DNA from: Escherichia coli
Lineage (GTDB): Bacteria; Pseudomonadota; Gammaproteobacteria; Enterobacterales; Enterobacteriaceae
Reading direction: 5' to 3' (one strand)
Length of the DNA: 4,153 bases
Assembly (NCBI RefSeq): GCF_003334255.1
Contig: NZ_QOWU01000111.1
Shown here: piece by piece, positions 1 through 3,875 of the stretch
Layout: each line of letters starts with the position of its first letter
Position numbering within the stretch: the first letter of the stretch is position 1
Program-made: the position numbers and the translations under genes
Notes under the pieces: generated by a model
Database searches by the model: none
The model's input: the letters and a program-made list of their open reading frames with translations, nothing else
Told to the model about the DNA's origin: nothing

Positions 1-114
1 ACGCGAGGCATCGTCTTAACGAGGCACCGAGGCGTCGCATTCTTCAGATGGTTCAACCCTTAAGTTAGCGCTTATGGGTTCAAGTCCCCGATGGCGGTCC
101 ATTATCTGCATCAT

Positions 115-191
115 GCGTTGTTAGCTCAGCCGGACAGAGCAATTGCCTTCTAAGCAATCGGTCACTGGTTCGAATCCAGTACAGCGCGCCA
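115..191 (+). tRNA. tRNA-Arg, anticodon TCT (decodes AGA), 77 nt with encoded CCA
   Basis: Hand-folded cloverleaf. Acceptor 115-121 GCGTTGT pairs with 181-187 ACAGCGC (one G-U pair). D stem GCTC 124-127 / GAGC 137-140. Anticodon stem ATTGC 142-146 / GCAAT 154-158 with 7-nt loop CTTCTAA, anticodon TCT at 149-151. 5-nt variable loop. T stem ACTGG 164-168 / CCAGT 176-180 with loop TTCGAAT. Discriminator G188, CCA 189-191. Resembles the argO/argN-type tRNAs carried in lambdoid late regions (from memory, not searched). Confidence 0.85.
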
Positions 192-298
192 TATTCATTC
201 TTCCAGATTCCTTTCGGCAGAGCCTTATACTGAAATATACCTGGCTCAGGATATTGTTGAAAATATTATATGTTTGTCAAAAATAAAAGTTCTGTTAA

Positions 299-655
299 GT
301 GTTGATTGAGTGTTTGTTATACGGTCTAATGGTTTTTTCAGCATTAAATATTTATCATTCATATGGTGTGGGTAGAGTGAATATTGATGAGGCGTCGGGG
401 TGTTTCATCCTTAGGCAGCGTATTGATATAGTCAATGCAGAACGAGCAAAGGCCTTCAGCCGTTTGACAGTTTTGTTCTGTACTCCTGATCGTCTTTCGG
501 GAAGAGACGTTATTATTCTGAATAGTGATGCTATACAGAGGGTTTGCGATGAGTTCATGGTGGCTAATTCAGAATTATTTGCTCTTGTTCAGGAGTACAA
601 CAGAATAGCCAGGACCTGTGGTATGGATGAACTTCGGATTACTCATCTGGGGTAG
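299..655 (+). CDS. hypothetical protein (118 codons as drawn; true start uncertain, candidates GTG299, ATG329, GTG377)
   Basis: Open frame from the six-frame track ending at TAG 653-655. No convincing Shine-Dalgarno in front of any candidate start. 6 of 11 Arg codons are AGA/AGG (3 AGA, 3 AGG), directly beside a tRNA-Arg(TCT). AT-rich promoter-like stretch 250-298 upstream. No domain recognised by eye. Confidence 0.3.
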   Translation: MLIECLLYGLMVFSALNIYHSYGVGRVNIDEASGCFILRQRIDIVNAERAKAFSRLTVLFCTPDRLSGRDVIILNSDAIQRVCDEFMVANSELFALVQEYNRIARTCGMDELRITHLG

Positions 656-735
656 ATACATATCTGGATTATCACCGGTTACGGTAAAAAGTGATTGCTT
701 ACTGTTTTTGTGAATGGCATTGCAGCAGCCGGATA

Positions 736-822
736 ATGTCAGTGCTGGCTGACGGTGTGCTGGTGGCGGGTGTGGTGGTTGCTGCTTTCCCGTTGCTGAA
801 AAAGAAAACGCCAGACTGTTAG
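736..822 (+). CDS. candidate small hydrophobic peptide, 28 aa (MSVLADGVLVAGVVVAAFPLLKKKTPDC); frame is open back to GTG691, which would give 43 aa
   Basis: ATG 736, TAG 820-822. One uninterrupted hydrophobic stretch of about 17 residues followed by KKK, typical of small single-pass membrane peptides (type I toxin-like or leader-like). GC-rich, E. coli-like codon choice. Only a weak SD (GGAT/CCGGA) upstream. Below the ORF-track length cut-off, so found by reading. Confidence 0.2.
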   Translation: MSVLADGVLVAGVVVAAFPLLKKKTPDC

Positions 823-1047
823 CCGGGTATCAGTTAGCGGGAGAAATTTTTAAATACTTCACAATTCAGGCGGTTGACTGTTGTCTGGTTTGCGGGGAGT
901 TTGTTAAAAGAAACTGGCATGGTGAATCCCCCTGTGCGGAGGGGCAATCAGCGAGTAGGTATATGGGATAATCGCGGATTCAGGTGCTGGTACTGAATTC
1001 ACCGGGAGGCACCCGGCACCATGCAATGGCACATAGCGCCACTCTCC

Positions 1048-1083
1048 AGCCCCTCTCCGGAGGGGCTGTTTATATTGATTTTG
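1048..1083 (+). terminator. Rho-independent terminator candidate, plus-strand orientation
   Basis: Perfect 8-bp GC-rich stem AGCCCCTC (1048-1055) / GAGGGGCT (1060-1067) with 4-nt loop TCCG, followed by GTTTATATTGATTTTG. On the minus strand the same hairpin is followed by GGAGAGTGG (no U tract), so it looks unidirectional. Confidence 0.5.
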
Positions 1084-1102: not shown

Positions 1103-1438
1103 TTATGGACTTTGTTGTTTTAGCCCATAAGGACATATTTGCAGAGTGCAACGGTTATTAAAGCATTCATTCAATACGTTATCTGTATTTGTAGGGCATT
1201 CCTGGCTGTTTTTGATTAAATTCCAGAATGTTTTATTGAATGGTACTACGTTGTAAATGGTTACAGGCAGCACTTTGTTATTGAGCATGATGCCTGTGTG
1301 AGTCAGTGTAAATATACTTTCAGGAGGTAAGAAAGCATCCGATTGATACCAGATTATTAATTTTATTTTACTCCATATGACTGAAAAAGATATTCCGCAT
1401 GATGGCTGGATAACTGTATCAATCACAATCCACTTCAT
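1103..1438 (-). CDS. hypothetical protein, 111 aa, AT-rich moron-like gene convergent with the late operon
   Basis: Only long ORF in a roughly 30-35% GC block (hand count of subsegments) where the plus strand is littered with stops in all frames. SD AAGGA about 6-7 nt upstream of the ATG at 1438 (minus-strand reading AAGGAAACTAA-ATG). Cys-containing C-terminal segment ([26 protein letters not shown]). No family recognised. Confidence 0.4.
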
Positions 1439-2410: not shown

Positions 2411-2414
2411 AGTG

Positions 2415-3305
2415 ATGAATAAAAAATATGAACTGGTTGTTAAGGGGATAAATAATTACGGGGATAAGGTTACTGTTACTGTGAAGCCGGAAGGTGACGG
2501 GCAAGCGTCGCTGTTGTTGCCAGATGTGGCGATTAGTCTTGACCGTACTGAAGGTGCCACGCTGGAGTTTTACGAAGCTGAGGCGAAAAAGCAGGCGAAG
2601 CAGTTTTTCATGGATGTTGCTGCCGGGTTATGTGAAGGGGATGGTCCGTTGCCGGAAAAGCGCCCCGTAATTTTAGAGGCGCAGGATGTGTTGATAACCT
2701 ACAAAGGAAAGCTACCGGGAAGAATTACTTGTTCTCTGAAGATGCCGCCGTCAACACTGCGGTCAGAAAAAGATGATGTTGAATCACGTATTGAAAAACT
2801 GGAGAGCTACGTCGTTGAGCTGAATAAGAAATGGTCGATATTGGTGCCTTCTGGCGATGAAAAGCAGTTTGCTGCGTTTGACGATTATTGTCGGAAAGTG
2901 ATGAGCAGAAATCTCGCAGAGTGTTTCAGTATTCATAATGATAATTTCAGTGACCCGGAATGGGAGTGTAACCGGCCATCCTTTGTTGTATCCGGTGATG
3001 CTGGGAAAATAACCATCTCAGAAAATGGGAAAGTAACACCTCCATCGCACCAGCACAGTGAGGAGCTCATTGAATTTGCCATTGATTACCTGAAGAACAA
3101 TAAAAAGCAGGGGCTGATGAAGCGCGTTGGCCGTTGCATGGGATATCTGCAGGTAGCTGCTGAGATTGAAGCGCTGGCCAGTGGTGCTGATAAGGATGCA
3201 ATTGTGCGGGAGGCTCTTCTTCGTGATTTTAATACTCCACCCTTTAAAAAAGTGCCGGCTTACTGGCTTCATCCGGGGCTGACTTATCTTAAAGTGCGTA
3301 TTTAG
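2415..3305 (+). CDS. hypothetical protein, 296 aa, inserted between holin and endolysin (function unknown)
   Basis: Long clean ORF with ATG at 2415 (GTG at 2412 also in frame). SD GGGAGAG at 2401-2407 sits 7 nt upstream and overlaps the last codons of S, whose TAA stop (2408-2410) lies between SD and start, i.e. translational coupling. No signal peptide or TM segment and no catalytic motif recognisable by eye. Stop TAG 3303-3305. Confidence 0.7.
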   Translation: MNKKYELVVKGINNYGDKVTVTVKPEGDGQASLLLPDVAISLDRTEGATLEFYEAEAKKQAKQFFMDVAAGLCEGDGPLPEKRPVILEAQDVLITYKGKLPGRITCSLKMPPSTLRSEKDDVESRIEKLESYVVELNKKWSILVPSGDEKQFAAFDDYCRKVMSRNLAECFSIHNDNFSDPEWECNRPSFVVSGDAGKITISENGKVTPPSHQHSEELIEFAIDYLKNNKKQGLMKRVGRCMGYLQVAAEIEALASGADKDAIVREALLRDFNTPPFKKVPAYWLHPGLTYLKVRI

Positions 3306-3341
3306 TGGGCCAGGGACAGCGGCTGAATATTTAATATATCC

Positions 3342-3875
3342 ATGAACACCAAAATCAAATACGGCCTGTCGGCTGCCGTTCTGGCGCTGATTGCCGCTGG
3401 TGCGCCTGCGCCTGACATTCTCGACCAGTTTCTGGATGAAAAGGAAGGCAAGCACACCACAGCATACCGTGATGGTGCGGGTATCTGGACCATCTGCCGA
3501 GGTGCCATCATGGTGGATGGTAAGCCTGTGATTCCTGGCATGAAGCTGTCGAAGGAAAAATGCGACTGGGTTAACACTATCGAACGGGATAAGGCGCTGG
3601 CGTGGGTGGAGAAAAACATCAGAGTGCCACTGACCGAACCCCAGAAAGCGGGGATCGCGTCATTCTGTCCGTACAACATTGGTCCCGGTAAGTGTTTCCC
3701 GTCGACGTTTTACAGACGAATTAATGCTGGTGATCGAAAAGGTGCCTGCGAAGCGATTCGCTGGTGGATTAAGGACGGTGGCAGAGACTGCCGTATTCGT
3801 TCAAACAACTGTTACGGTCAAGTATCCCGTCGTGACCAGGAGAGCGCGCTGGCGTGCTGGGGTATCGACAGATAA
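3342..3875 (+). CDS. R: SAR endolysin (phage 21 R21-type lysozyme, T4-lysozyme fold), 177 aa
   Basis: N-terminal weakly hydrophobic Gly/Ala-rich signal-anchor-release segment (GLSAAVLALIAAGAPAP). Catalytic triad spacing E35-x8-D44-x5-T50 (EGKHTTAYRDGAGIWT) seen directly. Overall very close to lambdoid/Stx-phage R proteins as I recall them. No strong SD upstream (36-nt gap after the previous stop). Confidence 0.92.
   Translation: MNTKIKYGLSAAVLALIAAGAPAPDILDQFLDEKEGKHTTAYRDGAGIWTICRGAIMVDGKPVIPGMKLSKEKCDWVNTIERDKALAWVEKNIRVPLTEPQKAGIASFCPYNIGPGKCFPSTFYRRINAGDRKGACEAIRWWIKDGGRDCRIRSNNCYGQVSRRDQESALACWGIDR

Follow-up and report, generated by a model that had tools for sequence, protein, structure and literature searches.

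A probable 92-aa gene of a small prophage protein family in the Shiga toxin slot of an Escherichia coli lambdoid prophage

The stretch of DNA analysed here, referred to as the window, comprises 4,153 nt of Escherichia coli contig NZ_QOWU01000111.1 (RefSeq assembly GCF_003334255.1) and is the late region of a lambdoid prophage. In near-identical RefSeq loci, this region begins with a Q-type antiterminator gene, sometimes followed by a DNA methyltransferase gene, and then by tRNA-Ile/Met, tRNA-Arg(TCG) and tRNA-Arg(TCT). It continues with an unannotated gap of ~500 nt that holds the open reading frame (ORF) considered here, and then with DUF3927, STnc100, an IraM-like gene on the minus strand, DUF1737, holin and lysozyme. 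In the window, an intact argO-like tRNA-Arg(TCT) was found at 115-191 (+) using ARAGORN and Rfam (68 bits). Alignment to the O104:H4 locus L002 identified a 26-nt 3' remnant of an argN-like tRNA-Arg(TCG) at 76-101 (+), where neither ARAGORN nor Rfam called a tRNA. Window positions 1-75 are unrelated to the tRNA-Ile/Met and tRNA-Arg(TCG) of related loci, and the E. coli genomes that match the window best do so from base 76 onwards, an arrangement that suggests a recombination breakpoint within the argN-like tRNA gene.

Downstream of the tRNA gene, an ORF of 118 codons extends from 299 to 655 (+), with a GTG start, a TAG stop and an in-frame TAA at 296. A shorter coding sequence (CDS) of 92 aa, also with a GTG start, occupies 377-655 (+) and ends at the TAG. 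The end of tRNA-Arg(TCT) is separated from base 299 by 107 nt, in agreement with the ~110 bp given in the initial annotation. A DUF3927 gene at 691-822 (+), which follows the 92-aa CDS by 35 nt, encodes a TciB-like small membrane protein of 43 aa (PGAP WP_001438304.1; phrog_1470, E = 1.5e-11), and a terminator scan of the window found none between 655 and 888. The STnc100 sRNA was identified at 888-1077 (+) (Rfam RF02076, 132 bits, E = 4.5e-30), with a terminator at 1047-1068; a 2026 preprint (10.64898/2026.05.13.724894) links STnc100 to the prophage sRNA PasD. Between this sRNA and the lysis genes lies an IraM-like anti-adapter gene at 1103-1438 (-), of 111 aa and 35% GC, which is another piece of late-region cargo. 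An intact 297-aa ORF at 2412-3305 (+) is located between holin and lysozyme; closely related RefSeq genomes carry at this site only a PGAP call for a partial 'YdfR family protein' pseudogene. Upstream of the 118-codon ORF, a promoter-like site at 257-284 matches 9/12, such sites being no commoner than in shuffled sequence. A hairpin resembling a terminator, at 491-509 within the CDS, was rejected as spurious, with just 3 G-C pairs and no conservation in L007, the allele used for comparison below.

The placement of the ORF just downstream of the late-region tRNAs, where the initial annotation noted that Stx phages carry stxAB, was examined by blastn against phage 933W (locus L185). Window segments 76-206 and 859-1025 match L185 positions 1757-1886 and 3249-3426; the first aligns to argN/argO and the second to the segment just after stxB2. 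Because the flanks align in this way, window 207-858 replaces stxA2B2 of 933W in a slot bounded by recombination, which bears out the proposed position. The replaced segment is a cargo cassette holding the 92-aa gene and the DUF3927 gene, and STnc100 forms its downstream boundary; 933W has a homologous segment right after stxB2. Phage phi296, which lacks stx, carries almost nothing in this slot, 45 nt against window 207-842. Comparisons with phi296 and 933W thus show inserted DNA where related phages have the flanking genes side by side, as in moron or cargo genes. The likeness to the 933W slot and to lambdoid morons covers identical flanks, with argN/argO upstream and an STnc100-like segment downstream, and a location ahead of the lysis genes within the Q-dependent late region. 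The cargo, however, is unrelated to Shiga toxin and consists of a predicted cytoplasmic 92-aa hairpin and the 43-aa DUF3927 peptide.

ORF length by itself is weak coding evidence here, since in first-order Markov simulations of the AT-rich segment 192-1683 an ORF of 118 codons or more arose with P = 0.08 (P = 0.28 for 92 codons or more). Selection was assessed by comparison with the 62%-identical allele L007, against which the sense frame has a dN/dS of 0.27. The 88 differences between the two alleles fall 24/21/43 at codon positions 1/2/3, a third-position excess. The DNA similarity starts exactly at 377 and fades a few bases past the stop, and the sequence upstream is unalignable. The 92-aa frame and its GTG are kept in all 79 IMG/VR copies examined, and the sense frame is open in every homologue. 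Polymorphic sites inside the CDS of the window-type allele comprise 5 synonymous and 3 nonsynonymous, with ~63 synonymous and ~213 nonsynonymous sites available. These comparisons suggest that 377-655 is very probably a genuine, intact gene starting at GTG 377. The initial annotation had considered that the ORF may be a remnant or may not be coding. Both readings are rejected on the comparative evidence: the homologues lack any further 5' extension and align from GTG 377, which does not describe a truncated gene, and a conserved protein family under the constraint given above exists. As a separate observation, the second position of codon 22 of the CDS (window 441) is tri-allelic among near-identical copies, with GCA, GAA and GGA encoding Ala (44/79), Glu (27/79) and Gly (8/79), and distant homologues have Glu or Lys at this residue.

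The region can also be read on the minus strand, either as a 67-aa ORF at 558-355 or as a 38-aa ORF at 362-246, which is annotated as hypothetical in phage mEp460_ev081 (LR597641.1). The antisense frame has a dN/dS of 0.22 against L007, a value that reflects wobble positions common to both frames, and it is open for 95 aa in L097, a locus of the P0022-type sister allele. Against this reading, the antisense frame contains 2 stops in the window and 2 in L007, at partly different positions, and one of the L007 stops breaks the counterpart of the 67-aa ORF. No PHROG or NCBIfam match was obtained for the minus-strand products, the BLOSUM score between alleles is 257 compared with 289 for the sense frame, and the homology block has the start and stop of the sense-strand gene as its limits. 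A functional minus-strand feature is therefore extremely improbable, and the 38-aa call in LR597641.1 is probably spurious.

Turning to the start codon of the sense-strand gene, pairing of each candidate with the anti-Shine-Dalgarno (SD) sequence was calculated as the predicted duplex energy with the 16S 3' end. The values were -0.4 kcal/mol at 299 and at 302, -2.2 at 314, -2.4 at 329, +2.6 at 368 and -4.5 at 377. GTG 377 has the best, though weak, pairing among the N-terminal candidate starts, through the SD-like stretch GGTGTGGGT at 365-373 (+), and the earlier remark that none of the candidate starts has a good SD holds. For the P0022-type sister allele (L097 and L102), the leader is homologous to that of the window and reads GGCAGGAGTAGA-GTG, with a canonical SD (AGGAG) and an energy of -6.9 kcal/mol. 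At the matching positions the window reads GGTGTGGGTAGA-GTG, and its SD-like stretch is the degenerate counterpart of the AGGAG in the sister allele. PGAP calls the sister allele as a 92-aa CDS (WP_001017777.1), and homologues free of unrelated N-terminal extensions align from the residue of GTG 377. Leaderless or otherwise unusual initiation, which the initial annotation had offered as an option, is unneeded because the conserved start is GTG 377, the same GTG that follows AGGAG in the sister allele.

A longer product would start at ATG 329 (108 aa) or at GTG 299 / TTG 302 (118 aa) and would carry a hydrophobic N-terminus that anchors the protein to the membrane. Several observations are consistent with such a form. 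The 26-codon in-frame run at 299-376 (+) is open in 76 of the 79 IMG/VR copies and, if translated, gives a hydrophobic N-terminus whose Kyte-Doolittle mean over 19 residues (1.7) would allow a membrane segment. As a start codon, ATG is stronger than GTG, and many gene callers use ATG 329; the phrog_2873 model has 108 positions, and the closest copies are called as 108 or 118 aa in protein databases, where clusters of both lengths exist. However, the upstream run is not conserved and is unalignable to L007, L097 has no in-frame start upstream of its GTG, and L074 carries a frameshifting 1-nt deletion in the T-run 332-337, between 329 and 377. GTG 299 is GTA in 19 of 31 distinct variants, and polymorphism in 329-376 comprises 0 synonymous and 3 nonsynonymous changes. 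The SD energies of the longer forms are -2.4 kcal/mol or weaker, and every distant homologue starts at the position of 377. The longer product is thus very unlikely, and 299-376 is most likely a 5' leader rather than coding sequence. The 118-codon reading would then be the 92-aa gene preceded by 26 accidental in-frame leader codons and, given the start evidence for GTG 377, the 108-aa form of PHROG 2873 is most likely an over-extension to the nearest ATG.

Insertion sequences were also observed close to the gene. IS1 is found ~70 nt before GTG 377 (equivalent to window ~300-308) in two IMG/VR loci, L024 and L075. In the P0016-type allele (L003-L006), the core is directly adjoined by an IS3-family element, which yields the chimeric 119-aa protein P0017. 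The 92-aa core is intact in every IS-bearing locus.

The weak SD could alternatively mean that the window-type allele is silent or decaying, in which case the family would be real and this ORF would no longer be usefully translated, its SD having decayed from AGGAG to GTGGG. The difference in pairing energy between the window and the sister allele is in line with this, as are the absence of a PGAP call and the lack here of the TerB-like partner found in sister loci. On the other hand, all 79 IMG/VR copies are intact despite polymorphism, the polymorphic sites show a purifying pattern, and the gene is kept at >=95% identity in at least 1236 complete E. coli genomes. Holin and the 297-aa ORF of the same window have starts with SD energies of -7.4 to -8.5 kcal/mol, and several accepted genes of the window have SDs as weak as or weaker than that of GTG 377, for example lysozyme with +0.4 and DUF3927 with -3.0 kcal/mol. 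A silent allele was considered as improbable as the longer product, and an intact 92-aa gene remains the preferred reading.

Relatives of the 92-aa protein were sought with a word-indexed search covering 5.8 billion proteins and with HMMER, run in full against 1.84 billion representatives, and both recovered a small family. In the 118-aa form, residues 11-118 match positions 1-108 of the 108-position phrog_2873 profile (E = 1.7e-70, 235 bits). The relatives P0022 to P0034 likewise match PHROG 2873, and the distant P0026-P0034 match PHROG 4827 too; neither family carries a function label. By these matches the protein is assigned to a small family, PHROG 2873, found mostly in enterobacterial prophages. 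The likeness is a full-length profile match, whereas the model differs in including 16 N-terminal positions (the ATG 329 form) that lie outside the conserved protein by the comparative evidence. Two sister alleles, P0014-P0019 and P0022, share 56-64% identity with the window protein, and the distant members P0026, P0027, P0028, P0030, P0032 and P0034 share 22-41%. Without unrelated extensions, the homologues are about 91-106 aa long and align from residue 1-10; the longer relatives carry unrelated extensions, such as the IS3-derived N-terminus of P0017. Among the 1.84 billion representative proteins, no homologue was found that extends 5' as a longer disrupted gene. The most distant relative, P0034 (phrog_4827-type, 22% identity; L103/L104), sits in the tail/baseplate module of a Mu-like phage, directly upstream of a DNA-circulation (gp43-like) gene, a context very unlike a lambdoid late region.

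In an AlphaFold2 model built from the family alignment, residues 3-34 and 50-81 are predicted to form a pair of long antiparallel helices (mean pLDDT 88.9), and the loop that joins them carries a conserved TPDR motif. The 92-aa protein has a pI of about 5.3, a net charge of -2.4 and no Trp; the family is acidic (pI 4.8-5.7 in 6/7 members) and has no membrane segment. Pfam, searched with the single sequence and with all 9 family members, and NCBIfam gave no meaningful match. No PADLOC model matched the protein or five of six relatives, and the sixth, P0028, had one chance-level match (E = 0.009). A Foldseek search of the model against PDB and BFVD returned generic helical hairpins alone, with E > 0.1, and the fold matches in AFDB50 were solely uncharacterised ~95-aa proteins from Escherichia, Citrobacter, Salmonella and a few other Proteobacteria. 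The helical hairpin is a generic fold. A full-text literature search with peptide fragments of the protein and with 'phrog_2873' found no paper.

Two known families of small proteins were compared and rejected. The ANR family of AraC negative regulators (Aar, Rnr) has a signature of A10, E14, A22, W26, A29, W43 and R47, three helices and a mass <10 kDa (PMC4983702). Like the ANR proteins, the protein described here is small and all-helical, and an AraC-family gene lies directly upstream of the homologue in two allele groups. However, the 92-aa protein has two long helices and lacks Trp, and the AraC neighbour is inconsistent, being absent from most P0022-type loci and from the window. GapR / UPF0335 (DUF2312), a DNA-clamp nucleoid protein, is of similar size, and in a PDB profile search helix 1 and the loop weakly matched GapR chains (E = 0.04-0.2). 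GapR is basic, in contrast to this acidic family, and no Pfam DUF2312 match was obtained even at E <=10. The structural comparison gave no fold match either, with GapR absent among the top 50 Foldseek PDB matches listed.

The initial annotation had also called attention to rare Arg codons beside a phage tRNA and had raised the idea that such tRNAs support the expression of adjacent cargo. The codon count agrees with it: the 118-codon ORF has 11 Arg codons, 3 of them AGA and 3 AGG, and in the 92-aa CDS AGA or AGG (AGR) accounts for 5/10. In E. coli, AGA and AGG make up roughly 6% of Arg codons on average. Relative to this share the excess is large, with a binomial P of about 1e-5 to 1e-4. Relative to neighbouring prophage genes, taken as the annotated genes in the late regions of two related prophages, it is borderline (23% AGR of 133 Arg codons, Fisher P = 0.12; 16% of 148, P = 0.016).

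If expression of the gene were gated by the adjacent phage tRNA-Arg(UCU), as proposed for stx, both the codon excess and the tRNA adjacency would be expected throughout the family. The window-type allele itself fits, as it has more AGR codons than any homologue and 76 of its 77 IMG/VR copies lie downstream of tRNA-Arg(TCT), at 184-187 nt from the CDS in 75 copies and at 962 nt in one more. The enrichment, however, rests on 10 codons, and the homologues have 9/38 Arg codons AGR, which is the prophage background. The four Arg residues conserved among the closer alleles are encoded by CGN in all of them. The AGR codons occur at variable positions, where relatives have Lys, Ser, Glu, Gly, Gln, Asn or Leu, and several are one mutation from the Lys, Ser, Gly or Gln codons of those relatives, as AT-rich drift would give. 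Only the window-type allele adjoins tRNA-Arg(TCT); none of the 18 P0022-type loci has any tRNA, and other alleles have tRNA-Thr, or tRNA-Met and tRNA-Arg(TCG), further upstream. Therefore, tRNA adjacency is a property of one mosaic arrangement and not of the family. The host, moreover, already has argU and argW. A tRNA that specifically serves this gene was thus judged unlikely, though less so than the longer product or a silent allele. The tRNA adjacency and the AGR excess of the window-type allele are compatible with relaxed codon constraint, as a single evolutionary observation, and the tRNA may permit AGR drift in this allele. Because the AGR codons lie at variable positions and the tRNA is not common to the family, the case advises caution: a rare-codon excess beside a phage tRNA does not by itself indicate functional coupling.

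The neighbours downstream differ between alleles. DUF3927 lies at +314 after the window-type gene in nearly all copies; downstream of P0022- and P0026-type genes, a TerB-like gene and DUF3927 usually come first, and then holin. In L097, a terminator-like hairpin 24 nt past the stop separates the gene from the TerB-like gene. Inspection of the locus sequences found neither a TerB-like nor a DUF3927 neighbour in 7 P0022-type loci, in the P0016-type loci and in L090. A remnant of the TerB-like gene was sought in the window between 655 and 691, and none was found. The arrangement resembles the tci operon of phage P1 (tciA TerB-like, tciB, tciC), in that the downstream neighbour in the window is TciB-like (phrog_1470), the TerB-like gene and DUF3927 of the sister alleles mirror tciA-tciB, and the operon of P1 also lies among tRNA genes. 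In contrast, tblastn against 50,697 phage records gave no match to the 92-aa protein in P1, and the functions of the P1 Tci proteins are themselves inferred by homology only, according to the record notes. Equivalence to TciC was rejected, as TciC has 35 aa, is encoded downstream of tciB and has no homology to the protein.

These features suggest a model for the 92-aa gene. The gene would be transcribed as part of the late operon, when Q-modified RNA polymerase reads through the tRNAs, and possibly also from the weak promoter-like site at 257-284, and translation would start at GTG 377 through the weak SD. The predicted product is a soluble, acidic antiparallel two-helix hairpin with the conserved TPDR loop. 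It may act as a small protein-binding accessory factor, probably in the form of an oligomeric bundle of helices, and not by catalysis or DNA binding; this mode of action is a guess that we regard as doubtful. The partner may be the TerB-like/TciB membrane module, which follows the gene in sister alleles. The tRNA-Arg(UCU) can decode the five AGA/AGG codons of the CDS, as a general benefit to late genes with no dedicated coupling.

A broader proposal is that the PHROG 2873/4827 hairpins, together with the ~95-aa relatives in Enterobacterales and other Proteobacteria, are unrecognised small phage effectors whose target is a protein of the host or the phage and which cooperate with the TerB-like/TciB membrane module just before holin. 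This is unlikely, and more so than the accessory-factor guess. If it were true, possible roles would include lysis timing, envelope-stress tolerance and superinfection exclusion, and the window-type allele would tolerate its AGR codons by travelling with tRNA-Arg(UCU). The function would then be invisible to annotation-based screens, because roughly one in four complete E. coli genomes has the gene without a RefSeq annotation.

Of 5426 complete E. coli genomes, 1312 carry the CDS, 1236 with a coverage of >=80%, and no feature is annotated by PGAP under the CDS in 39 of 40 sampled RefSeq genomes. Among phages, tblastn of the 92-aa protein against the 50,697 records found mEp460_ev081 alone; this is the only phage of the INPHARED collection with the gene, which is unannotated there. 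Nothing here suggests a toxin or a new mechanism, and the locus holds an ordinary but real, under-annotated prophage accessory gene, neither a remnant nor toxin-like cargo. The main value of the finding lies in annotation. A conserved gene under purifying selection occupies the exact Shiga toxin slot and is unannotated in RefSeq, in carriers that include O104:H4 and ST131-type strains. Other pipelines give it the wrong start, and the 92-aa form from GTG 377 would be the right construct for experimenters.
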